DNA of 51,816 bases from a virus. Lineage: Duplodnaviria; Heunggongvirae; Uroviricota; Caudoviricetes. Of this stretch, positions 1,090-44,237 are shown one piece after another; positions within the stretch are counted from its first letter, which is position 1, and every line of letters begins with the position of its first letter. The stretch lies in the IMG/VR virus record IMGVR_UViG_2627854066_000007; one strand, written 5' to 3'. A model generated the notes under the pieces. That model made no database searches. It saw only the letters and a list, made by a program, of their open reading frames with translations, and was not told the DNA's origin. The position numbers and the translations under genes are program-made.

Positions 1090-1126
1090 GTAAGCGTACA
1101 GCGAGGGCCGTATTGACGGGGATGTG

Positions 1127-2665
1127 TTATTCAGCTGGCAGTGCTATGCGCCACGGAAGCAGTTCGCTGACCCGGTTGACCGGCCAGTCTGCTATGACGC
1201 CAAGCACATGGCGAAGGTAGCTTTCTGGATCCACGTCATTCAGTTTGCACGTCCCTATCAGGCTGTACAGTAGCGCTCCCCGCTCACCACCATGGCCAGA
1301 GCCGAAGAACAGGAAGTTTTTACGACCCAGACTTACCGCCCGCAGGGCATTTTCAGCGATGTTGTTGTCGATTTCCACCCAGCCATCGTTCGCATAGTAC
1401 GTCAGTGCCGGCCACTGGTTAAGTGCGTACGCGAACGCCTTCGCCAACTCTGAGTGTCGCGACAGGGTCTTCATCTTTTCACGCAACCAGCTTTCCAGGG
1501 ATTTCAACAGCGGTTTCGTTTTTCGCTGACGTTCAGCAAGCCGCTGCTCTGCCGGCATTCCCCTTATATCCGCCTCTATGGCGTACAACTGACCGATCTG
1601 CTCCAGGGCTTCTTCCGTCAGTGCTGACGGGATGCGGACGTGCACATCGTGGATCTTTCGGCGGGCATGAGCCCAGCAGGCAGCTTCCGTTATCCCACCA
1701 TTGCGATACAGCTCGTTGAACCCGGCGTACGCATCCGCTTGCAGCACACCGCTGAAGCAAGCAAGATGAGTCTGCGGATGGATGCCTTTTCTGTCCGGGC
1801 TGTAAGCGAACCACACTGCAGGTGCCAACGCTGACCCGGCATTGCGGTCATCACGAACATACGCCCACAACCGCCCGGTCTTCGTCTTCTTATTACCCGG
1901 CATCAGTACCTGGACCGGGGTATCATCGGCATGGAGTTTGCCGTCAGTCATGACATAGCCATGAAGCGCCTCTTCCAGCGGAGACAGCAGCCGGCAGCAT
2001 GCATCCACCCAGCCCGACAGCAGTGAACGGCTCAGCTCCACACCTTGCCGGCCGTATATTTCTGACTGGCGATACAGCGGGGTGTGCTCTGCATACTTCG
2101 AGGTCAGCACGCGGGCCAGCAGCCCCGGTCCGGCGATACCCCGCTCGATGGGCCGCGAAGGTGCAGGTGCCTGCACGATGGCATCGCACTGAGTACAGGC
2201 ATGTTTTTCCCGTACCGTCCGGATAACCCGGAAGGCGCTACGCATCAACTCCAGCTGTTCGGCGGTATCCTCGCCCAGATAGCTCAGTGAACCGCCGCAG
2301 TTCGGGCAGCACGGCGCCGCAGGCAACAGTCGCTTTTCGTCACGGGGTAGTGATTCAGGGAACGGCTTACGGATGCGGGTCTGACGCAACGGACGCTGTA
2401 CTGCCGGGTCATACACCCTACCAGTCAGCGTATCGCTCTCTTTCTGAAGCTGGTTCAGATCGGCTTCCATTTGTGCGATACGGCGGGAGACTTTTTCGGA
2501 ACGACTGCCGAAGTTCATCCGGCGGAGTTTATCCAGCTGCGCCTGCAGATGGTCTATTTCGCGCTCCCGGTTGCTCAGCTTTTCCTGCAGGGCGTGGATC
2601 AGCGCTTCCTGTTCGGCCAGGCGCTGTTTCAGCAGGAAGATGTCGTCAGAAGAGATGTCGTTCAT
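1127..2665 (-). CDS. tnpC: IS66-family transposase TnpC
   Basis: 512-aa ORF with N-terminal leucine-zipper-like coiled coil, CxxC zinc motifs and DDE-type core; a paralog is at 37170-38708. Confidence 0.9.
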
Positions 2666-2714
2666 AAGCCCGTATTTTACCGGGCTTATTCTGTGACAAC
2701 CAGGATAAAGAGAT

Positions 2715-3062
2715 TTACAGCATGGTCAGGGAGGTCAGCAGCCGCTTAGGCTGTCGCCAGTCGATACCTTCCAGCAGCATCGCCAGCTGCGCCTGTGTAA
2801 GGAACACTTTGCCATCACGGGCTGACGGCCAGGCGAAGCGCCCACGCTCCAGCCGTTTGGTCAGGAGGCACAGTCCGTCACCGGTGGACCACAGCAGTTT
2901 AACCTGACTGCCGCTGCGGCCCCGGAAAATGAAAACATGGCCGGACATGGGATCGTCTTTCAGCGCCGTCTGTACTTTCGCAGCCAGGCCGTTGAAGCCA
3001 TTTCTCATATCGGTGATACCGGCAACCAGCCAAATTTTGGTCCCGGAAGGTAAAGGGATCAT
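2715..3062 (-). CDS. tnpB: IS66-family accessory protein TnpB (Orf2)
   Basis: 115-aa ORF directly upstream of tnpC, overlapping tnpA stop by 4 nt; near-identical paralog at 38757-39104. Confidence 0.85.
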
Positions 3063-3460
3063 CGCTTCAGTTCCTGTATCAGCAGAGTCAGGAGCTTTTC
3101 GCTGACATTGCCATTGAAGCGGAGCGTCCCGTGCCGGAACGTTACCTCACAGCTGATACTGAGGGTTTCCGGGTCCTCTGCGAGCGATTCTGGCTGTTCG
3201 GCAGCTGCATCGAGAGTCACAGGAAGTAGCTGGGGGCTCTCTGAAGAAGGTAATAGCAGCTTTCCCTCGCGCCATTGTTGTCGCCATTTGAACAACAGAT
3301 TGGCGTTAATGCCATTTTCAAGAGCAAGTTTTGAGATGGATATCCCGGGTTCACAGGAGGCAGCAACGAGCTGCTGTTTAAATTCGGGAGGATAATTAGG
3401 GCAGCCTTTTCGCCTGCCGGGAGTCACATTTTTCTGCATATCTGACACTTTGGTTCCCAC
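3059..3460 (-). CDS. tnpA: IS66-family accessory protein TnpA (Orf1, HTH)
   Basis: 133-aa ORF, first gene of the IS66 three-gene operon; paralog at 39101-39505. Confidence 0.8.
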   Translation of the reverse strand: MGTKVSDMQKNVTPGRRKGCPNYPPEFKQQLVAASCEPGISISKLALENGINANLLFKWRQQWREGKLLLPSSESPQLLPVTLDAAAEQPESLAEDPETLSISCEVTFRHGTLRFNGNVSEKLLTLLIQELKR

Positions 3461-3531
3461 TACTTATTTGGTGGACACCACTTTGTCTAATTCATCAGAT
3501 TCTGACCAGACGGTTCAGGCTGTACGCTTAC

Positions 3532-3620
3532 CAATAGAAAAACACGAAAGAAGCACTAAGGATTTGGTGAAAGCAGCAGTATCGGGATGGCTGGGCACTG
3601 CGCTTGAATTTATGGATTTC
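3532..3620 (+). pseudogene. ydfJ: ydfJ 5' fragment (codons ~2-30) between IS66 copy 1 and attL
   Basis: Reading frame encodes PIEKHERSTKDLVKAAVSGWLGTALEF, which continues as MDFQLYSLGAALVFHEIFFPE at 50533 on the far side of the prophage. Confidence 0.65.
3605..3620. other. attL core (prophage left junction within ydfJ)
   Basis: TGAATTTATGGATTTC here versus TGAATTATGGATTTC at 50527-50541; the two copies bracket the prophage and both lie in the ydfJ reading frame. Confidence 0.5.
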
Positions 3621-3657
3621 AAGAGTCATACGTGTCAACTATTTGATAAATATTAAA

Positions 3658-4953
3658 TTAATTTTTCATTGCTTCGTTATGGGGCATGGTTGGGGCAAAC
3701 TCGCTTAACTGTGTATTTAACAAAGCTACCTGTGCATTATTGTTTTCAGACATCCATTTTCCGTATACCTGAAATACCATTTGCGCATCTGCATGGCCCA
3801 TCTGGTTTGCTATAAATGCCGGGTTAGCACCAGCTGTCAGCGACCAGCAGGCATAAGTATGTCTCGACTGATATGATTTTCGATGGCGGAGTCCGGCACG
3901 TTTTATCGCTGCGTCCCACATCTGCCTTATTGAGTCAACGGTAAAATGGTCACCATAATTTTTTACTCTCGCTGACACTTCAGGTTGAAAAACAAAGGTG
4001 CATTTTTGTTTTTCTGTTCTGCCATACTCTCTGAGGTGAACATCAATGATATGCTCTTTGCTCAGTCTCGTTAATGTCATCTGACTCCGGAGAGCGTCGA
4101 TTGCTGGCTTAATAAGATGAATGACCCGATTGGTTCCCGCCTGTGTTTTTGGTACCGTGAAACGGTCTTTTGCTAAATTTCTCCTGATCATCATTGTTCC
4201 ATTTTTCAGATCTATGTCCTCCCATCCAAGTGCACACAGCTCACCAGGGCGAACGCCAGTATAAACAGAAACACACCATAAATTTTTTGCTTGCTGATTT
4301 CTGCACGCATCGATAAGACGGATAAATTCCTCCCGCGAAAGAGGATCCGGAATGGTTCTTGATTCCTTTAATGGCGAGATCCCCTTAAACGGATTATCTG
4401 GCAGGTAACCGTTATCAACACCAAACTGGAACACGGCGTTAAGATTTGTCATGTAATTATTTACAGTTACAGCCGATCTCCCTGGTTGTGTAACAATATA
4501 GTTACTTTTGGGGATCTGGTATCCAGTCAGTAGCTCTTTACGAACCTCCAGTAATTTTTCTTTATTAATCGATGAGGCAAGATTTTTTTCACCGATTATG
4601 CTCAGGATATTTTTGATGACGGCACGGTATGTGTTGAGTGATGTTTTGGCGACTTCAGTTTCTTTCAGTGCCAGAAATTTTTCAGCCAGTTCTTTTATGG
4701 TTAAATCTTGTCGGGCCTCACCAAATTTTTCCAGATTGCGTGAGGAGGGAAACTGTTTTGCATAGTCGAAAACACCAGTTTTTATTGCGTAACAAACAGA
4801 GGAGCGTAGTTCACCTGCAACGCGCCTGTTTTTTGCTGTGTCAGGAACCCCCAGATTTTCCCTGACTCTTACGCCTTTATAAACAAACCAGATACGTAAT
4901 TTCCCTCCATGGTTTTCCACGCCTGTCGGATATTTCATTTCAACTTCTCTCAT
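3658..4953 (-). CDS. int: Phage integrase (tyrosine recombinase)
   Basis: 431-aa ORF adjacent to attL; C-terminal catalytic region with RxxR...HxxRH...Y-type motifs (RSQMTLTR, HTYACW, QMGHADAQMVFQVYGKW); true start may be the internal Met at residue 6. Confidence 0.9.
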   Translation of the reverse strand: MREVEMKYPTGVENHGGKLRIWFVYKGVRVRENLGVPDTAKNRRVAGELRSSVCYAIKTGVFDYAKQFPSSRNLEKFGEARQDLTIKELAEKFLALKETEVAKTSLNTYRAVIKNILSIIGEKNLASSINKEKLLEVRKELLTGYQIPKSNYIVTQPGRSAVTVNNYMTNLNAVFQFGVDNGYLPDNPFKGISPLKESRTIPDPLSREEFIRLIDACRNQQAKNLWCVSVYTGVRPGELCALGWEDIDLKNGTMMIRRNLAKDRFTVPKTQAGTNRVIHLIKPAIDALRSQMTLTRLSKEHIIDVHLREYGRTEKQKCTFVFQPEVSARVKNYGDHFTVDSIRQMWDAAIKRAGLRHRKSYQSRHTYACWSLTAGANPAFIANQMGHADAQMVFQVYGKWMSENNNAQVALLNTQLSEFAPTMPHNEAMKN

Positions 4954-12749: not shown

Positions 12750-13775
12750 ATGCACATTTTATCTGTTTCAAAAAAGGAAGTTGGAAGAGCTGGGGATAGA
12801 TTAGTTTCTCAGTTTGGTACAGGTGAAAAATATAAAGAGGAAGATGTACAAATTCTTCATGAGTGGAGGATGTTGCATTTATATCCTTTAAGTAAAATAC
12901 AATTTTATATGGAAAGAGAGGCTATTTCCTTAAACAAAAATGCGTTACTATCCTCTAGAATTAAGAGGATGCCTTCCATTGTTACTAAGCTTTCTAGATT
13001 TCCTGATATGAAGTTAAATAAGATGCAGGATCTTGGTGGGTGCCGGGCTATTTTAAATAATCTGGATCAAGTGTATGATTTAGTTAATAAAATAAAATCA
13101 TCTAAATTCTCACATGAACTAGTTAGAATGGATGATTACATGATAGACGTGAAAGATTCTGGTTATAGAAGCTTTCATATGGTCTATTCATTCCAAAATA
13201 AAAAATTTCCATCTTTAAATGGGTTGCGCATTGAAATGCAAATAAGAACAGCTATTCAACATAGCTGGGCTACAGCAGTTGAAATGGTTGGTTTGTTTCG
13301 AAAGGAATCATTGAAATCTGGTTTTGGTGATGCAAGATGGCTTAGGTTTTTTGAATTGGTATCAGAGCTTTTTTATAAACTTGAGTATGAAAAAGAACCA
13401 TCTGGGAGTTATATAAAAATATCAGAAGAATTAAGTTATTTATCCGTCGAGTTGAATGTTTTCGATATATTAGCTGCTTACAATGCCGTAGTTAGCCATA
13501 TTGAGGGTAGCAAAAAATATGATAAAGGACTTTGCATAATTGTTGTTGATACCATAAAGCGGAATATAAATATAAAGAGCTTCGAAAATCACAATCATGC
13601 GAAGGCGGCAGAAGCTTATGTCGAGTCTGAAAAATACTGCGCGGAAAATAAAGGCTGTGAAGTGGCTATGGTTTCTGTTAGTTCAATTAGTGAATTAAAA
13701 AATGCATATCCTGCTTACTTTTTAGATACGAAAACTTTTTTAAATTATCTCAGTAGGTATGTTTTTATAAAATAA
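12750..13775 (+). CDS. RelA/SpoT-like nucleotidyltransferase (small alarmone synthetase-like; candidate toxSAS/CapRel-type)
   Basis: 341-aa ORF carrying RSH synthetase motifs in order: R70-x-K72-x3-S76-x3-K80, D94-LGGCR99, G138-YRSFH143, E162-MQIRTAIQHSWA174; gene is strongly AT-rich versus flanks; ~120-aa C-terminal extension beyond the catalytic core. Confidence 0.8.
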   Translation: MHILSVSKKEVGRAGDRLVSQFGTGEKYKEEDVQILHEWRMLHLYPLSKIQFYMEREAISLNKNALLSSRIKRMPSIVTKLSRFPDMKLNKMQDLGGCRAILNNLDQVYDLVNKIKSSKFSHELVRMDDYMIDVKDSGYRSFHMVYSFQNKKFPSLNGLRIEMQIRTAIQHSWATAVEMVGLFRKESLKSGFGDARWLRFFELVSELFYKLEYEKEPSGSYIKISEELSYLSVELNVFDILAAYNAVVSHIEGSKKYDKGLCIIVVDTIKRNINIKSFENHNHAKAAEAYVESEKYCAENKGCEVAMVSVSSISELKNAYPAYFLDTKTFLNYLSRYVFIK

Positions 13776-14208: not shown

Positions 14209-14298
14209 GTGCTGGTTCTCAAATGTGCGCTGGCTATTACGGCTGTAATGGCGATTTATTGTCTTGCTATTGTTCTTATGGATCGCCTTTCTGACTGA
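14209..14298 (+). CDS. Candidate 29-aa hydrophobic peptide (type I toxin-like)
   Basis: AGGAGG at 14198-14203, 5 nt before GTG; product MLVLKCALAITAVMAIYCLAIVLMDRLSD is a single predicted transmembrane helix with a charged tail. Confidence 0.3.
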   Translation: MLVLKCALAITAVMAIYCLAIVLMDRLSD

Positions 14299-14509
14299 TT
14301 TCATATTGGCGAGGTAAAGGTAGTTAAGTAGAATGGCTGCGGGTGCTTGAGGCTATCTGCCTCGGGCATGAACACCAAAGGCAGATAGAGAAAAGCCCCA
14401 GTTAACATTACGCGTCCTGCAAGACGCTTAACATTAATCTGAGGCCAATTTCATGCTAGACACATGTAGGTTAGCCTCTTACGTGCCGGAAGGCAAGGAG
14501 AAGCAGGCT

Positions 14510-14665
14510 ATGAAGCAGCAAAAGGCGATGTTAATCGCCCTGATCGTCATCTGTTTAACCGTCATAGTGACGGCACTGGTAACGAGGAAAGACCTCTGCG
14601 AGGTACGAATCCGAACCGGCCAGACGGAGGTCGCTGTCTTCACAGCTTACGAACCTGAGGAGTAA
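14510..14665 (+). CDS. hok: Hok-family type I toxin
   Basis: 51-aa ORF MKQQKAMLIALIVICLTVIVTALVTRKDLCEVRIRTGQTEVAVFTAYEPEE, a canonical Hok/Gef sequence; in-frame upstream extension from 14453; structured leader upstream. Confidence 0.85.
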   Translation: MKQQKAMLIALIVICLTVIVTALVTRKDLCEVRIRTGQTEVAVFTAYEPEE

Positions 14666-14733
14666 GAGACCCGGCGAGGGAGAAATCCCTCGCCACCTCT
14701 GATGTGGCAGGCATCCTCAACGCACCCGCACTT

Positions 14734-14760
14734 AACCCGCTTCGGCGGGTTTTTGTTTTT
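14734..14760 (+). terminator. Rho-independent terminator downstream of hok
   Basis: GC-rich hairpin AACCCGCTTCGGCGGGTT followed by TTTTGTTTTT. Confidence 0.5.
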
Positions 14761-14881
14761 ATTTTCAACGCGTTTGAAGTTCTGGACGGTGCCGGAATAG
14801 AATCAAAAATACTTAAGTAGCGCGCAGGGATAAGAGGGATGGTCCCTTAAAGGGGAGAGCTAATTATCCGGAAGGATTCTG

Positions 14882-17464: not shown

Positions 17465-17662
17465 CCGGGATAAACATTGGCAGTTGAAGGTCCACGCGAA
17501 CCATTTATCCGGCAAAATTCCACGCGTAATCCTGTGGTAATTTCTTCTGCATCTCGAAGATTGAGAGCTGAAACGTGAAGCTGGGCATCGATACGCCATC
17601 GGATGGGAATATAAGACCTTTGCTGCTTTTGTAGTCAAAGTTTTTGACAATTCCTGTCATTT
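17465..17662 (-). pseudogene. cspF: cspF-like cold-shock gene with frameshift
   Basis: Minus strand encodes [22 protein letters not shown], then the csp-like continuation [42 protein letters not shown] is only recovered after a 1-nt frame change following GATGGC. Confidence 0.6.
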
Positions 17663-17970
17663 TAGGGGACAGAAAAACTCCTTAATACTGATAACCTGGT
17701 GCACCATACACACGTTCCTGGAGAAAACTACTTTTTTGATAGGGTTGAAGGTGGCTGGATGTCTAAAATAAACATTGCTTCATATGTTCAACTATGAGTT
17801 AATGACTGCGTCGGTTTGAAGAACAGACGATATACGAAGTAGTTTACTAAAGCAGTTCTCATTTCAGGTGTTATTCACTTATTCCTTCTTTGAGTCTCTC
17901 CAATTAAGTACGAAGTCGTTTCTGTTATGCAAACCATTTATGCCGAAAGGCTCAAGTTAAGGAATGTAGA

Positions 17971-36308: not shown

Positions 36309-37007
36309 ATGCAGGATATTCCACAGGAAACACATCATGAGACGACACGCCTCACTCAGTCAGCCCAGGTGGTGCTCTGGGAAATCGATCTGACAGAGGT
36401 CGGTGGTGAACGTTATTTTTTCTGTAATGAGCAGAACGAAAAAGGTGAGCCGGTTACCTGGCAGGGGCGGCAGTATCAGGCATACCCCATTCAGGGGACG
36501 GGATTTGAACTGAATGGCAAGGGCAGTGCTGCCCGTCCGACACTGACGGTTTCTAACCTGCACGGCATGGTCACCGGGATGGCGGAAGACCTGCAGAGTC
36601 TGGTCGGCGGAACGGTGGTCAGGCGTAAGGTTTACGCCCGTTTTCTGGATGCGGTGAACTTCGTCAACGGAAACAGCGACGCCGATCCGGAGCAGGAGGT
36701 GATCAGCCGCTGGCGCATCGAGCAGTGCAGCGAACTGAGTGCGGTCAGTGCCTCCTTTGTACTGTCCACACCGACGGAAACGGATGGTGCCGTTTTTCCG
36801 GGGCGCATCATGCTGGCTAATACCTGCACCTGGACCTATCGCGGTGATGAGTGCGGTTATCACGGTCCGGCTGTCGCGGATGAATATGATCAGCCGACGT
36901 CCGATATCACGAAGGATAAATGCAGCAAATGCCTGAATGGCTGTAAGTTTCGCAATAACGTCGGCAACTTTGGCGGCTTCCTTTCCATTAACAAACTTTC
37001 GCAGTGA
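36309..37007 (+). CDS. Minor tail protein L
   Basis: 232-aa ORF with C-terminal Cys cluster (CTWTYRGDECGY...CSKCLNGC), lambda gpL-like. Confidence 0.9.
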   Translation: MQDIPQETHHETTRLTQSAQVVLWEIDLTEVGGERYFFCNEQNEKGEPVTWQGRQYQAYPIQGTGFELNGKGSAARPTLTVSNLHGMVTGMAEDLQSLVGGTVVRRKVYARFLDAVNFVNGNSDADPEQEVISRWRIEQCSELSAVSASFVLSTPTETDGAVFPGRIMLANTCTWTYRGDECGYHGPAVADEYDQPTSDITKDKCSKCLNGCKFRNNVGNFGGFLSINKLSQ

Positions 37008-37012
37008 ATCCC

Positions 37013-37132
37013 ATGACAGAGACAGAATCAGCGATTCTGGCGCACGCCCGGCGATGTGCGCCAGCGGAGTCGTGCGGCTTCGTGGTGAGAACGCCGGAAG
37101 GGGAAAGATATTTTCCCTGCGTGAATATCTCC
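37013..37132 (+). pseudogene. Tail assembly protein K, N-terminal 40 codons (interrupted by IS66-family element)
   Basis: MTETESAILAHARRCAPAESCGFVVRTPEGERYFPCVNIS ends at the IS boundary; resumes in frame at 39595 after the 8-bp duplication. Confidence 0.75.
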
Positions 37133-37169
37133 GTAAGCGTGCAGCAAGAACCGTATTGACGGGGATGTG

Positions 37170-38708
37170 TTATTCAGTCGGCAGTGCTACGCGCCAGGGG
37201 AGCAGTTCGCCGACCCGGTTTATCGGCCAGTCGGCTATGACGTCAAGGACATAGCGGAGGTAGCTTTCTGGCTCCACTCCGTTCAGTTTGCACGTCCCGA
37301 TCAGGCTGTACAGCAGCGCTCCCCGCTCTCCTCCATGATCCGAACCGAAGAACAGGTAGTTTTTGCGGCCCAGACTGACCATCCGCAACGCATTTTCAGC
37401 GATGTTATTGTCCGCCTCAGCCCAGCCATCATCTGCATAGTACGTCAGCGCCGGCCACTGGTTCAGGGCGTATGCGAACGCTTTCGCCAGTTCTGAGTGT
37501 CGCGACAGGGTTTTCATCTTTTCACGCAGCCAGCTTTCCAGGGATTTCAGCAGCGGTTTCGTTTTCAACTGACGTTCGGCAAGGCGCTGCTCCGCCGTCA
37601 TTCCCCTTATCTCTGCCTCGATGGCGTACAGTTCGCCGATCCGTTTCAGCGCTTCCTCCGTCAGGGCTGACGGGGTGCGAACGTGCACATCGTGGATTTT
37701 ACGGCGGGCGTGAGCCCAACAGGCGGCTTCCGTTATCCGGCCATCCCGGTACAGCTCGTTGAACCCGGCGTATGCATCCGCCTGCAGTACACCACTGAAC
37801 CCCGCAAGATGGGTCTGCGGATGGATGCCTTTTCTGTCCGGGCTGTAAGCGAACCACACCGCCGGCGCCAGCGTTGACCCGGCGTTACGGTCGTCACGAA
37901 CGTAGGTCCATAACCGCCCGGTCTTCGTTTTCTTATTGCCTGGCAACAGCACCGGGACAGGCGTGTCATCAGCATGGAGCTTACCGTCAGTCAGCACATA
38001 GTCCTGAAGCGCTTCTTCCAGCGGTGACAGTAGCCGGCAGCATGCATCCACCCAGCCCGACAGCAGTGAACGACTCAGCTCCACGCCCTGGCGGCCGTAC
38101 ATTTCAGACTGGCGGTACAGCGGGGTGTGCTCTGCATACTTTGAGATCAGCACGCGGGCCAGCAGCCCCGGTCCTGCGATACCCCGCTCGATGGGCCGTG
38201 AAGGCGCGGGGGCCTGCACGATGGCATCGCACTGAGTACAGGCATGCTTTTCACGTACAGTCCGGATAACCCGGAAGGCGCTGCGCATCAGCTCCAGCTG
38301 TTCGGCGGCATCCTCACCCAGATAGCTCAGCGAGCCTCCACATTCCGGGCAGCATGACGCTGCCGGCAGCAGCCGTTTTTCATCGCGGGGGAGTGATTCG
38401 GGGAACGGTTTGCGGGTGCGGGTTTGACGCAGCGGGCGCTGCACGGCCGGGTCGTCAACCCGACCGGTAAGGGTATCACTTTCTTTCTGAAGTGCCTTCA
38501 GGTCAGCTTCCATCTGTGCGATACGACGGGAGACTTTTTCCGAGCGGCTGCCGAAGTTCATCCGGCGCAGCTTATCCAGCTGTGCCTGCAGATGGTCTAT
38601 TTCGCGTTCACGCTCGTTCAGCTTTTCCTGCAGGGCACGGTTCAGCGCCTCCTGTTCGGCAAGGAGACGTTTCAGTGCATTGATATCGTCAGGAAGTGAG
38701 CTGCTCAT
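37170..38708 (-). CDS. tnpC: IS66-family transposase TnpC (copy 2)
   Basis: 512-aa ORF, paralog of 1127-2665 with scattered substitutions. Confidence 0.9.
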
Positions 38709-38756
38709 ACCGGGTATATTACCAGGCTCATTCAGCGTCGACCAGGATAAAGAGGC

Positions 38757-39104
38757 TTACAACATAGTCAGGGACGTAAGCAGTCTTTTAGGCTGCCGCC
38801 AGTCGATACCTTCCAGCAGCATCGCCAGCTGTGCCGGTGTGAGGAACACTTTGCCATCCCGGGCTGACGGCCAGGCGAAGCGGCCGCGCTCCAGCCGTTT
38901 GGTCAGCAGACACAGTCCATCGCCGGTAGACCAGAGGAGCTTTACCTGACTGCCATTACGCCCACGGAAGATAAAAACGTGACCTGACATCGGATCGTCT
39001 TTCAGCGTCGTCTGCACCTTTGCCGCCAGGCCGTTGAAGCCGTTTCTCATATCGGTGATGCCAGCGACCAGCCAGATCTTTGTCCCTGATGGTAATGGGA
39101 TCAA
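38757..39104 (-). CDS. tnpB: IS66-family TnpB (copy 2)
   Basis: 115-aa ORF, near-identical to 2715-3062. Confidence 0.85.
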   Translation of the reverse strand: MIPLPSGTKIWLVAGITDMRNGFNGLAAKVQTTLKDDPMSGHVFIFRGRNGSQVKLLWSTGDGLCLLTKRLERGRFAWPSARDGKVFLTPAQLAMLLEGIDWRQPKRLLTSLTML

Positions 39105-39505
39105 CGTTTGAGCTCCCGTATCAGCAGGTTCAGGATATTTTCACTGATGGCACCATTCAGACGGAGTGATCCGTGCCGGAACGTCACTTCACAGCTGATA
39201 TTGAGTGATTCAGGTGTCGCAGTAGCTACAGGTTGTGACCGGGGGGAGGTTGTAGGGACAACATCTTCGGCATCAAGTGTTATCGGGAGCAGCTCAGGCA
39301 CGTTGTTTTCTGTTGTTGAAGGAGGACGTAGTTTTCCTTCGCGCCAGTACTGGCGCCACTTGAACAGCAAATTATCGTTGATCCCATGCTCACGAGCGAG
39401 TTGCGCTACGGAGATCTCTGGTCGATGCGAGAGTTCAACCATTTTGATTTTGAACTCAACGGGATAATTAGGGCTTTTTTTACGCACTGCGGTTAATGAT
39501 TTCAT
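39101..39505 (-). CDS. tnpA: IS66-family TnpA (copy 2)
   Basis: 134-aa ORF; N-terminus differs from copy 1. Confidence 0.8.
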   Translation of the reverse strand: MKSLTAVRKKSPNYPVEFKIKMVELSHRPEISVAQLAREHGINDNLLFKWRQYWREGKLRPPSTTENNVPELLPITLDAEDVVPTTSPRSQPVATATPESLNISCEVTFRHGSLRLNGAISENILNLLIRELKR

Positions 39506-39594
39506 GGATAGCGTCCACCATATTTGGTGTCCACTATTCTCTCAGGAATTTCAGGATCTGCCAGACGGTGCTGAGACGACGCTTACATATCTCC

Positions 39595-40218
39595 GGTGAG
39601 CCGGAGGCGTATTTCCGGATGTCGCCGGAGGACTGGCTGCGGGCAGAGATGCAGGGTGAGATTGTGGCGCTGGTCCACAGCCACCCCGGTGGTCTGCCCT
39701 GGCTGAGTGAGGCCGACCGGCGGCTGCAGGTGCAGAGTGATTTGCCGTGGTGGCTGGTCTGCCGTGGGGAGATTCATAAATTCCGCTGTGTGCCGTATCT
39801 CACCGGGCGGCGCTTTGAGCACGGGGTGATGGACTGTTACACGCTGTTCCGGGATGCTTACCATCTGGCGGGGATTGAGATGCCGGATTTTCATCGCGAG
39901 GATGACTGGTGGCGTCACGGTCAGAATCTCTATCTGGATAATCTGGAGGCCACAGGGCTGTATCAGGTGCCGTTGTCAGCGGCGCAGCCGGGCGATGTGC
40001 TGCTGTGCTGTTTTGGTTCATCGGTGCCGAATCATGCCGCCATTTACTGCGGCGACGGTGAGCTGTTGCACCATATTCCTGAACAACTGAGCAAACGAGA
40101 GAGGTATACCGACAAATGGCAGCGACGCACACACTCCCTCTGGCGTCACCGGGCATGGCACGCATCTGCCTTTACGGGGATTTACAACGATTTGGCTGCC
40201 GCATCGACCTTCGTGTAA
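39595..40218 (+). pseudogene. Tail assembly protein K, C-terminal 207 codons (JAB/MPN + NlpC/P60-like)
   Basis: GEPEAYFRMSPEDWLRAEMQGEIVALVHSHPGG (JAMM-like HSHP motif) continuing to the stop; in frame with 37013-37132 once the IS and one duplication copy are removed. Confidence 0.75.
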
Positions 40219-40763
40219 AAACGGGGGCTGAAGCCATCCGGGCGTTGTCCACACAGCTCCCGGCGTTTCGTCAGAAACTGAATGACGGCTGGTATCAGGT
40301 GCGCATTGCTGGGCGTGATGCAGGTGAAACCGAATTATCTGCCCGTCTTAATGAGCCGCTGGCAAATGGTGCCGTGATCCACATCGTGCCGCGTCTGGCG
40401 GGAGCTAAAAGTGGCGGTGTGTTTCAGGTGGTGCTGGGGGCGGCGCTGATTGCTGTGGCATGGTGGAACCCTGTGGGCTGGCTGGGTGCCGCGGCTGTAT
40501 CGGGCATGTATGCGGCAGGGGCCAGTATGATCCTGGGTGGTGTGGCCCAGATGCTGGCACCGAAAGCCCGGACGCCCACAGCGACCAGCACGGATAACGG
40601 TAAGCAGAACACCTATTTTTCATCACTGGATAACATGGTTGCCCAGGGCAATGTTCTGCCTGTTCTGTACGGTGAAATGCGTGTGGGGTCTCGTGTGGTT
40701 TCTCAGGAGATCAGCACGGCAGATGAAGGGGACGGTGGTCAGGTTGTGGTGATTGGCCGCTGA
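40116..40763 (+). CDS. Tail assembly protein I
   Basis: 215-aa ORF overlapping the K 3' end, with a Gly/Ala-rich hydrophobic C-terminal half as in lambda gpI; the internal start at 40155 is also possible. Confidence 0.8.
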   Translation: MAATHTLPLASPGMARICLYGDLQRFGCRIDLRVKTGAEAIRALSTQLPAFRQKLNDGWYQVRIAGRDAGETELSARLNEPLANGAVIHIVPRLAGAKSGGVFQVVLGAALIAVAWWNPVGWLGAAAVSGMYAAGASMILGGVAQMLAPKARTPTATSTDNGKQNTYFSSLDNMVAQGNVLPVLYGEMRVGSRVVSQEISTADEGDGGQVVVIGR

Positions 40764-40823: not shown

Positions 40824-43800
40824 ATGGGCAAAGGCAGCAGTAAGGGGCATACCCCGCGCGAAGCGAAGGACAACCTGAAATCCACGCAGTTACTGAGTGT
40901 GATCGATGCCATCAGCGAAGGGCCGATTGAAGGTCCGGTGGATGGATTAAAAAGCGTGCTGCTGAACAGTACACCGGTGCTGGACAGTGAGGGGAATACC
41001 AACATCGCCGGTGTCACGGTGGTGTTCCGGGCAGGTGAACAGGAGCAGACACCGCCGGAGGGATTTGAATCCTCCGGATCCGAGACGGTGCTGGGTACGG
41101 AAGTGAAATACGACACGCCGATCACCCGGACCATCACGTCTGCAAACATCGACCGTCTGCGCTTTACCTTCGGTGTGCAGGCACTGGTGGAAACCACCTC
41201 AAAGGGGGACCGGAATCCATCGGAAGTCCGCCTGCTGGTTCAGATACAACGTAACGGTGGCTGGGTGACGGAAAAAGACATCACCATTAAGGGCAAAACC
41301 ACCTCGCAGTATCTGGCCTCGGTGGTGGTGGGTAACCTGCCGCCGCGCCCGTTTAATATCCGGATGCGCAGGATGACGCCGGACAGCACCACAGACCAGC
41401 TGCAGAACAAAACGCTCTGGTCGTCATACACCGAAATCATCGATGTGAAACAGTGCTACCCGAACACGGCACTGGTCGGCGTGCAGGTGGACTCGGAGCA
41501 GTTCGGCAGCCAGCAGGTGAGCCGTAATTATCATCTTCGCGGACGCATTCTGCAGGTGCCGTCGAACTATAACCCGCAGACGCGGCAATACAGCGGTATC
41601 TGGGACGGAACGTTTAAGCCAGCATACAGCAACAACATGGCCTGGTGTCTGTGGGATATGCTGACCCATCCGCGCTACGGCATGGGGAAACGTCTTGGTG
41701 CGGCGGATGTGGACAAATGGGCGCTGTATGTCATCGGCCAGCATTGCGAGCAGTCGGTGCCGGACGGTTTTGGCGGCACGGAGCCGCGCATCACCTGTAA
41801 TGCGTACCTGACCACACAGCGTAAGGCGTGGGATGTTCTCAGTGATTTCTGCTCGGCGATGCGCTGTATGCCGGTATGGAACGGGCAGACGCTGACGTTC
41901 GTGCAGGACCGACCGTCGGATAAGGTGTGGACCTATAACCGCAGTAATGTGGTGATGCCGGATGATGGCGCGCCGTTCCGCTACAGCTTCAGCGCCCTGA
42001 AGGACCGCCATAATGCCGTTGAGGTGAACTGGATTGACCCGAATAACGGCTGGGAGACGGCGACAGAGCTTGTGGAGGACACGCAGGCCATTGCCCGTTA
42101 CGGTCGTAACGTCACGAAGATGGATGCTTTTGGCTGTACCAGCCGGGGGCAGGCACACCGCGCCGGGCTGTGGCTGATTAAAACGGAGCTGCTGGAAACG
42201 CAGACCGTGGACTTCAGCGTGGGCGCAGAAGGGCTTCGCCATGTACCGGGCGATGTCATTGAAATCTGCGATGATGACTATGCGGGCATCAGCATCGGCG
42301 GGCGCGTGCTGGCGGTGAACAGCCAGACGCGGACACTGACGCTCGACCGTGAAATCACGCTGCCATCCTCCGGTACCACGCTGATAAGCCTGGTTGACGG
42401 AAGTGGCAATCCGGTCAGCGTGGAGGTCCAGTCCGTCACCGACGGCGTGAAGGTAAAAGTGAGCCGTGTTCCTGACGGCGTTGCCGGATACAGCGTGTGG
42501 GGGCTGAAGCTGCCGACGCTGCGCCAGCGCCTGTTCCGCTGCGTGAGTATCCGTGAGAACGACGACGGCACGTATGCCATCACCGCCGTGCAGCATGTAC
42601 CGGAAAAAGAAGCCATCGTGGATAACGGGGCGCACTTTGACGGCGACCAGAGCGGCACGGTGAACGGGGTCACGCCGCCAGCGGTGCAGCACCTGACCGC
42701 AGAAGTCACCGCAGACAGCGGGGAATATCAGGTGCTGGCGCGCTGGGACACGCCGAAGGTGGTGAAGGGGGTGAGTTTTATGCTTCGCCTGACCGTGGCC
42801 GCGGATGACGGCAGTGAGCGGCTGGTCAGCACGGCCCGGACGACGGAAACCACATACCGCTTCACGCAACTGGCGCTGGGGAACTACAGGCTGACAGTCC
42901 GGGCGGTAAATGCGTGGGGACAGCAGGGCGATCCGGCATCGGTATCGTTCCGGATTGCCGCACCGGCAGCGCCGTCACAGATTGAGCTGACGCCGGGCTA
43001 TTTTCAGATAACTGCCACGCCGCATCTTGCGGTTTATGATCCGACGGTACAGTTTGAGTTCTGGTTCTCGGAAACGCGGATTACCGATATCAGGCAGGTT
43101 GAAACCACAGCCCGCTACCTTGGCACGGGGCTGTACTGGATAGCCGCCAGTATCAATATCAAACCGGGCCATGATTATTACTTTTATATCCGCAGTGTGA
43201 ACACCGTTGGCAAATCGGCATTCGTGGAGGCCGTCGGTCGGGCGAGCGATGATGCGGAAGGTTACCTGGATTTTTTCAAAGGCAAGATAACCGAATCCCA
43301 TCTCGGCAAGGAGCTGCTGGAAAAAGTCGAGCTGACGGAGGATAACGCCAGCAAACTGGAGGAGTTTTCGAAAGAGTGGCAGGACGCTAACGATAAGTGG
43401 AATGCCATGTGGGGCGTCAAAATTGAGCAGACCAAAGACGGCAAACATTATGTCGCGGGTATTGGCCTCAGCATGGAGGACACGGAAGAAGGCAAGCTGA
43501 GCCAGTTTCTGGTTGCCGCTAACCGTATCGCGTTTATTGACCCGGCAAACGGGAATGAAACGCCGATGTTTGTGGCGCAGGGCAATCAGATATTTATGAA
43601 CGACGTGTTCCTGAAGCGCCTGACGGCCCCGACCATTACCAGTGGTGGAAATCCACCGGCATTTTCCCTGACGTCAGACGGAAAGCTGACCGCTAAAAAT
43701 GCGGATATCAGTGGCAGTGTGAATGCGAACGCCGGGACGCTCAACAATGTCACGGTAAATGAAAACTGTACGATTAAGGGCATGCTGGAGGCGACTCAGG

Positions 43801-44237
43801 TCAGAGGTGACTTCGTTAAAGCTGTATCCAAATCATTCCCGAAACAGGCTGGTACGTGGGGTAACACGGAAACACCAAACGGGACGGTTACAGTCACCAT
43901 CAGTGATGATCATAACTTTGACCGTCAAATCATTATTCCGCCCATTATCTTTAACGGAATAGCGTATAGCGATCCGGGAAGTGGTAATAACCCGGGAGGT
44001 ACAAGATACACGGGTTATGGTTTTGAAGTTCGCAAAAACGGTGTATTAATCGCATCCAGAGAAACTAAAGGGGCCATTCCCGGTAGCTACAGTGCGGTTA
44101 TTGATATGCCGAGTGGCAGGGGAAGCGTCACTCTGGAGTTTAAGGTTTTCCATAAAGGCAATCAGTGGGCAGGTAATATCACCGACTGTACGGTGATTGT
44201 GACCAAAAAAGCCGCTTCCGGCATCAGTATTCGTTGA
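40824..44237 (+). CDS. Tail tip/host specificity protein J
   Basis: 1137-aa ORF, lambda gpJ size and position. Confidence 0.9.

Follow-up and report, generated by a model that had tools for sequence, protein, structure and literature searches.

ISEc22 splits tail gene K of a lambdoid Qin-locus prophage at a probable target hotspot of IS66-family elements

The stretch of DNA analysed here, which we call the window, is the whole 51,816 nucleotides of the IMG/VR virus record IMGVR_UViG_2627854066_000007 (Caudoviricetes), and the feature of interest is its phage tail gene K, which is split by a complete copy of the insertion sequence (IS) ISEc22, a member of the IS66 family. Upstream of K lies tail gene L (36309-37007, plus strand; 232 aa), found in the list of open reading frames (ORFs) and named 'phage minor tail protein L' by the Prokaryotic Genome Annotation Pipeline (PGAP) in strain 64.1, whose sequence is near-identical. 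K starts with the ATG at 37013 and can be translated as MTETES...PCVNIS up to 37132; this 5' fragment (37013-37132, plus strand) comprises codons 1-40, including the one for Glu19 of the predicted JAB/JAMM motif, and is recorded by PGAP as a pseudogene 'missing C-terminus'. The element follows at 37133-39586 (minus strand), its 2,454 bp opening with GTAAGCG at 37133 and closing with CGCTTAC at 39586, and the reading of K is resumed at 39595 (GEPEAYFRMSPEDW...) and ends at 40218. Repeat comparison placed ATATCTCC at 37125-37132 and again at 39587-39594; the ninth base differs, so that the repeat is exactly 8 bp long and represents a target-site duplication. Joining 37013-37132 to 39595-40218 yields 744 nt that are in frame and encode 247 aa followed by a stop, i.e. 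the element was inserted between codons 40 and 41 of K, with tnpA-tnpB-tnpC antisense to it. An earlier interpretation of this DNA made without database searches, to which we refer as the sequence-only reading, had described the split of K, the 8-bp duplication and the GTAAGCG/CGCTTAC boundaries, and every base position that it gave was confirmed.

The same reading had assigned the element to the IS66 family, and the assignment could be narrowed to ISEc22: numerous E. coli chromosomes and plasmids contain copies that are 100% identical to the one in the window over all 2,454 bp, and PGAP labels these 'IS66-like element ISEc22 family transposase', with tnpA and tnpB. The name ISEc22 is thus taken from PGAP-annotated copies and not from the ISfinder entry. 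Matches to ISEc22 covering at least 80% of the element are present in 2,192 of 5,426 complete genomes. On the minus strand of the window, tnpC (37170-38708) encodes the DDE transposase of 512 aa (Pfam DDE_Tnp_IS66, E 5e-107, together with zf-IS66, LZ_Tnp_IS66 and DDE_Tnp_IS66_C), tnpB (38757-39104) an IS66 accessory protein of 115 aa (TnpB_IS66, E 1.6e-38) and tnpA (39101-39505) an accessory protein of 134 aa (HTH_Tnp_1, E 9e-12; PGAP 'IS66-like element accessory protein TnpA'). The start codon of tnpB is a TTG that overlaps the stop codon of tnpA (TTGA). All three ORFs are intact, and the Pfam families PF01527, PF05717, PF03050, PF13005, PF13007 and PF13817, which make up the complete IS66 set, all score above their gathering thresholds. 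The terminal inverted repeats are imperfect; both start with GTAAGCGT, and the two ends agree at 17 of their first 26 positions. At the level of sequence the element shows all the features that define the IS66 family, and its intact ORFs and ends suggest that this copy is competent for transposition. A duplication of 8 bp was also present at every other full-length IS66-family junction examined in the K region and at the ISEc8 element of the window, described below.

To the right of the element, the 3' fragment of K (39595-40218, plus strand) carries codons 41-247 and the stop, with the H68-x-H70...S81..D84 part of the JAMM motif and the whole of the NlpC/P60 domain. Two ORFs end together with it. 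The first (39619-40218, plus strand) starts at Met49, is preceded by GGAGG at 39603-39607 and encodes 199 aa, the first 48 residues of K being absent; it corresponds to K as annotated in the lambda reference. The second (39496-40218, plus strand; 240 aa) starts inside the end of the IS and runs into K, and PGAP lists it as an intact 'C40 family peptidase' (WP_374704724.1 in 64.1). Its match to JAB is partial, covering profile positions 45-113, no Shine-Dalgarno-like sequence was seen by eye directly upstream of its ATG, and the annotation as a peptidase is most likely an artefact. Fragments equivalent to this ORF are flagged as pseudogenes in other K::IS alleles. The end of K is overlapped by tail assembly gene I (40116-40763, plus strand), which is followed by the tail tip/host-specificity gene J (40824-44237, plus strand; 1,137 aa), both identified from the ORF list and from PGAP.

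Searching for the uninterrupted form of the site, as the sequence-only reading had proposed, we found it by sequence in related strains. At least 18 complete E. coli genomes have an uninterrupted K ('C40 family peptidase') that matches the rejoined 428 bp at 100% identity, and in strain 181.1 the same prophage occupies the same place in the chromosome and has an unbroken K. The alignment with 181.1 shows 99.94% identity up to 37133 and 99.6-99.96% identity from 39587 on, the two segments overlapping by the 8-bp target. Rejoined K differs from K of 181.1 at 5 nt and at none of 247 aa, in agreement with the ~247-aa protein that had been predicted upon removal of the element. The filled site is not private to the window: both junctions are 100% identical in six complete poultry genomes (64.1, APEC 102026, E7, APEC17, GPEC673 and GPEC1258), and the window and strain 64.1 are 99.97% identical over 49.9 kb. 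The insertion is real, and it postdates the separation from the 181.1-type prophage. It is also older than the divergence of the six poultry isolates, and because these share the same insertion, the 'recent' suggested by the sequence-only reading can be retained in a relative sense only. As an IS insertion K::ISEc22 is ordinary and is already annotated automatically in RefSeq; its use lies in annotation and in marking a lineage among poultry-associated E. coli.

Exploring the length of K, we found that the K protein of lambda in RefSeq is 199 aa long (14276-14875) and that its start equals Met49 of the window. The alignment revealed that the lambda reference (NC_001416 14133-14875) is without one G at K nt 135 (GGAGGC-TATTT). 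Since the missing G breaks the 247-aa frame, the reference carries a 199-aa K and a 148-nt 'gap' after L. With the L-K junction as a query of 321 nt, separately deposited lambda stocks and derivatives (PV340536, LC730321, KT232076, DE3, lambda imm21 and lambda imm434) proved to be one base longer, and in PV340536 and LC730321 the extra base was placed at nt 135, where it yields a continuous K of 247 aa. The frameshift is confined to the old reference and to OR474059 and OR974322, which are identical to the reference over the 321-nt query, and it is probably either a sequence error of 1982 or a stock polymorphism. The idea that laboratory lambda builds its tails with a naturally split K is ruled out by this restricted distribution. 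The curated annotation of phage 434 uses the long form of K. Codons 1-48 are open across diverged alleles and, compared with the O103-type allele, show 12 synonymous and 3 non-synonymous changes. The K gene of the window is 96-98% identical over 742-744 nt to K of mEp460, cdtI, 434 and lambda derivatives; the sequence-only reading had named a mismatch of the joined frame with intact homologues as fatal to its claim, and the joined frame in fact matches K of plaque-forming phages. Among 249 phage records with K, a single match covers at least 80% of the gene in 247, the remaining two having been left out of inspection. Given the long-form lambda stocks, the conservation of codons 1-48 and the coverage in phage records, we take the 247-aa form to be the functional K gene. 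Two annotation problems emerge: K of the lambda reference (199 aa) is seemingly truncated, and the IS-K fusion ORF is labelled an intact peptidase.

Pfam places a Prok-JAB domain at residues 4-105 (E 2.8e-14) and an NLPC_P60 domain at residues 111-224 (E 2.5e-13) of rejoined K. Residues 7-110 align with the JAB-type structure 2KKS, the 'E-x-C-G' segment included, and the L-K-I-J synteny is kept, with K between L and I/J. The cut is located inside the N-terminal JAB/MPN domain, where it parts Glu19 from H68-x-H70...S81..D84. The N-terminal product is predicted to be 48 residues long, 40 from K and 8 from the IS, with a stop at 37159, and the C-terminal fragment contains NlpC/P60 entire and the distal two-thirds of the JAB domain. 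Classical lambda genetics showed that gpK is needed for tail-tip building. Split by ISEc22, the gene would give no full-length gpK, and we consider tail assembly most likely lost in this prophage. In the absence of gpK, induction would result in lysis and filled heads with few or no infectious tailed particles. Transcription of the downstream genes I, J, lom and stf would continue, since the late genes of lambdoid phages are read under Q antitermination. The prophage so predicted could still lyse its host and would be unlikely to spread as an infectious virion.

Several observations weigh against a complete loss of K function. The Met49 ORF and its GGAGG survive, together with the whole NlpC/P60 domain and part of JAB, so that residual K activity is possible, and the part played by the JAB domain in the tail-assembly function of K is putative only. 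The insertion could accordingly be a mild one, in which the 199-aa K' translated from Met49 (39619), with GGAGG 11 nt upstream, or the IS-K fusion ORF (39496-40218) gives enough K for tails. That the K protein of the lambda reference record is exactly this 199-aa protein and that NlpC/P60 is complete in the fragment agree with such a view, as does the report that gpK, an assembly factor, is absent from the virion proteins detected (PMC10721106). However, the 199-aa annotation stems from the G missing in J02459, and independently sequenced lambda stocks encode a continuous protein of 247 aa. Furthermore, codons 1-48, which the short form would do without, are conserved with mainly synonymous change and include the predicted JAMM Glu19, nearly all phage records with K (the 247 of 249 mentioned above) have one match over at least 80% of the gene, and no sigma-70-like promoter facing K from the IS end was found in 39000-39700. 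On this evidence we regard a mild insertion as unlikely.

The recurrent targeting of this position of K by IS66-family elements had gone unseen in the sequence-only reading. Recurrence, in other prophage backgrounds, was found by a search with the left junction, by queries with the flipped-orientation and ISEc23 junctions and by scans of viral contigs, after which the exact junctions were extracted; the junction searches covered insertions located between about -350 and +900 bp relative to the site. Within K nt 92-142, nine junctions were identified that can be told apart by their position, element, orientation or K allele and that involve ISEc22, ISEc23 and IS679; at least four of them, and probably five, are located exactly at nt 113-120, in both orientations. 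At nt 113-120, ISEc22 is antisense in the window and six genomes (ATATCTCC) and sense in GF8, GF75, GF161 and CDF6 (ATATATCC). The same position (ATATCTCC) is occupied by ISEc23 in antisense orientation in 23CRST030 and in viral contig L131/L187, in sense orientation in REF2 and EC17, and again in sense orientation in 1446, 1447, AZ189 and AZ190, where K is of a different allele whose flanking sequence differs within 14 bp of the IS. A further sense ISEc23 at nt 113-120, in viral contig L130, may be the same event as either of these two sense insertions. The neighbouring positions are all occupied in antisense orientation: by ISEc22 at nt 92-99 (AAAGATAT) in F8704-2 and E110019, by ISEc22 at nt 117-124 (CTCTGCAG) in seven genomes, including an O103:H2 strain, and in viral contig L079, by IS679 at nt 132-139 (GGATTATT) in FDAARGOS_1059, and by ISEc23 at nt 135-142 (GTATTTTC) in AVS0343 and AVS0155. 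Among these three IS species, the TnpC proteins share only 59-65% identity. An orientation bias was considered when the first five events were all antisense and was discarded with the final count of 6 antisense and 3 sense, which shows no real bias. Elsewhere in the searched region, in the other ~1.2 kb outside the 51-bp cluster, two events only were found, an ISEc22 in the 3' end of L and an ISEc22 at K nt ~617. The exact junction had 0 matches in species-representative genomes and metagenome contigs, and a loose gapped pattern applied to the viral contigs returned mostly chance matches, 2 being real.

As they differ in position, IS species or orientation, the nine junctions are not copies of one event, and they indicate that K nt 113-120 with its surroundings is a genuine target hotspot, at which the clustering would reflect target choice by the transposition machinery. 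The clustering at nt 92-142 might instead be ascribed to selection, recombinational spread or ascertainment, given that insertions that inactivate a prophage are maybe neutral or favoured and so retained, that K is abundant (11,476 places in 4,336 genomes) and offers many chances, and that the searches were centred on this site. Yet selection for K inactivation is unable to give nucleotide-exact re-use, recombinational copying of one event is at odds with the differences between the junctions, and the 9 events inside the 51-bp cluster stand against 2 outside it in ~1.2 kb. In addition, the flanks of 94 unique ISEc22/ISEc8 sites in viral contigs were very diverse, and one pair only was located within 150 bp. 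We therefore judge it quite improbable that the cluster arose by selection, recombinational spread or ascertainment and not by target preference. That the IS was put into K by an assembly that misplaced a repeat can be dismissed with near certainty, for although IS copies are a classic source of misassembly and this element is 100% identical to other copies, the 8-bp duplication is perfect, the rejoined frame is exact and both junctions are the same in the six independently assembled poultry genomes.

A large hemagglutinin-repeat gene was also considered as a second site re-used by ISEc22 and was rejected; the element has the same position and orientation in three strains, 104, 13P477T and KKo009 (from chicken, pig and river water), and the simplest explanation is one event, probably inherited or else horizontally shared.

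Together, the data are best explained by a split of K by ISEc22 at codons 40/41, with a presumed loss of K, in conjunction with a hotspot of IS66-family target choice, and we hold this joint explanation to be very likely. The IS66 family is generally held to have little target specificity. In the literature searched we found no report of this hotspot in K or of target specificity in the IS66 family, and the recurrent hotspot is the new part of the present analysis.

Candidate determinants of the hotspot are AT islands, the palindromes GGGAAA/TTTCCC and CTCCGG/CCGGAG, and GGCGTATT. A logo of 93 unrelated ISEc22/ISEc8 targets displayed an AT-rich core of the duplication, C at -2 mirrored by G at +9, and A/T at -16 and -19, a preference that is weak and roughly palindromic. 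Several results on possible determinants count against a hotspot of target choice. A target consensus was rejected as its cause, the K site ranking about 2,000-4,000 of 46,900 by position weight matrix. A hairpin or cruciform target was likewise rejected: the local fold at the K site is stable relative to shuffled sequences (z = -3.6 and -2.9), and two perfect hairpins with 6-bp stems flank the target, but the site ranks 66-126 among 3,900 window segments (top 2-3%) and targets are no more foldable than control DNA (p = 0.89). The K sequence adjoining the target resembles the subterminal inverted repeat (IR) of IS66 elements, ranking 9-60 of ~93,750 window positions, and this pseudo-IR motif outscores all 105 comparison segments. 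Attraction by the pseudo-IR as the cause of the hotspot is nevertheless weakened, for ordinary targets are without such a motif, the match in K misses an invariant C, and insertion at these very 8 bp also took place in the K allele of the 1446 group, which is without the IR-like motif. Hence, none of consensus, hairpin or IR-like motif explains the hotspot in K.

Post hoc, all duplications were seen to lie within three AT-rich islands (nt 92-102, 112-118 and 135-140) that are ~21 bp apart in GC-rich DNA. This arrangement agrees with the weak A/T preference of the logo at about ±16-19 bp and suggests a bent or flexible target, which we offer purely as a hypothesis. On balance, we think it likely that K nt 113-120 (ATATCTCC) with ~50 bp around it constitutes a natural nucleotide-precise hotspot that is shared by ISEc22, ISEc23 and IS679 and whose determinant would lie beyond a simple consensus, for instance in the three AT-rich islands and the GC-rich, hairpin-prone DNA around them. 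If so, the site would provide a defined compact substrate for studying how TnpA, TnpB and TnpC of the IS66 family choose their targets, and insertion there would be a recurrent route of tail-function loss in lambdoid prophages. The recurrence suggests that these prophages commonly lose K at the outset of their domestication or decay, and that this first step is biased mechanistically.

By the PGAP annotation of strain 64.1, K::ISEc22 is carried by a lambdoid prophage of full length that occupies the Qin locus. There, the early part runs rspB, ISEc8, int-xis-exo, dicB/ydfD, repressor/cro, hokD, rem, a Q-like antiterminator and cspB/cspI; then come holin-lysozyme-Rz, terminase, portal, a protease/capsid fusion, tail genes and the tape measure, and the end is formed by M, L, K::ISEc22, I, J, lom, stf, tfaQ, pin and ydfK. 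The sole other pseudogene annotated in the 64.1 prophage is cspF (window ~17470-17672), which is annotated as frameshifted and truncated in both 64.1 and 181.1. Long ORFs that match the prophage genes of 64.1 are open in the window, so that the view of the sequence-only reading that head, lysis and regulatory genes are intact stands at the level of open reading frames and is limited to that level.

A second IS66-family element, ISEc8 (window 1090-3531; 2,442 bp), which the sequence-only reading missed, is positioned between rspB and the integrase gene in the same orientation as ISEc22 and is bordered by a clean 8-bp duplication, CAATAGAA, at 1082-1089 and 3532-3539. ISEc8 and ISEc22 are 85% identical over ~2.1 kb; being 33.6 kb apart and flanking int through K, they could in principle mediate a deletion. 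The early region near hokD and rem also encodes, at 12750-13775 (plus strand), a RelA/SpoT-domain protein of 341 aa (WP_000547812.1 in 64.1), which could be a small alarmone-synthetase-type toxin or a defence gene. In the sister prophage of 181.1, a separate IS3-family element lies between lom and the gene for the side tail fibre, and frameshifts are flagged in the ydfR and lysozyme genes of that prophage. Unless these frameshifts are assembly errors, the sister copies of the prophage are therefore decaying by different routes. Other hits of ISEc22 in lambdoid structural genes were found in J of EC21Z-014, in the tape measure gene of EC0880B and in the portal gene of B1_2. Morphogenesis genes of prophages are frequently disrupted by IS66-family elements.

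Compared with the named element ISEc22, the window copy has the same nucleotide sequence, the same tnpA/tnpB/tnpC order, the GTAAGCG termini and the 8-bp duplication, and it differs in nothing but its location in prophage gene K. The K gene of the window shares with lambda gpK the L-K-I-J synteny, the JAB/MPN and NlpC/P60 domains and the nucleotide identity of 96-98%. The differences are that the window gene is split after codon 40 and that K of the lambda reference is given as 199 aa, compared with 247 aa in re-sequenced lambda. Insertion hotspots are known from other IS families, as exemplified by the hot spots and IR-targeting of IS30, the IR-targeting of IS911 and the consensus sites of IS10. 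There, as in K, one short target is re-used with nucleotide precision by an IS of the DDE type. The K site differs from these in that no explanatory consensus or IR-like determinant was found, and the K region in that three IS66-family species with TnpC proteins 59-65% identical are involved. Decay of lambdoid prophages by IS elements is known as well, e.g. from the IS-riddled prophages of enterohaemorrhagic E. coli and the Qin remnant of K-12, and like these decaying prophages the one described here, which otherwise looks complete, has an IS in a structural gene. It occupies the same locus as Qin of K-12 and carries the Qin marker genes dicB, rem, hokD, cspB/I, tfaQ and pin. Unlike K-12 Qin, it retains the whole head and tail module, and its broken genes, by the annotation of the near-identical 64.1 prophage, are K and cspF alone.

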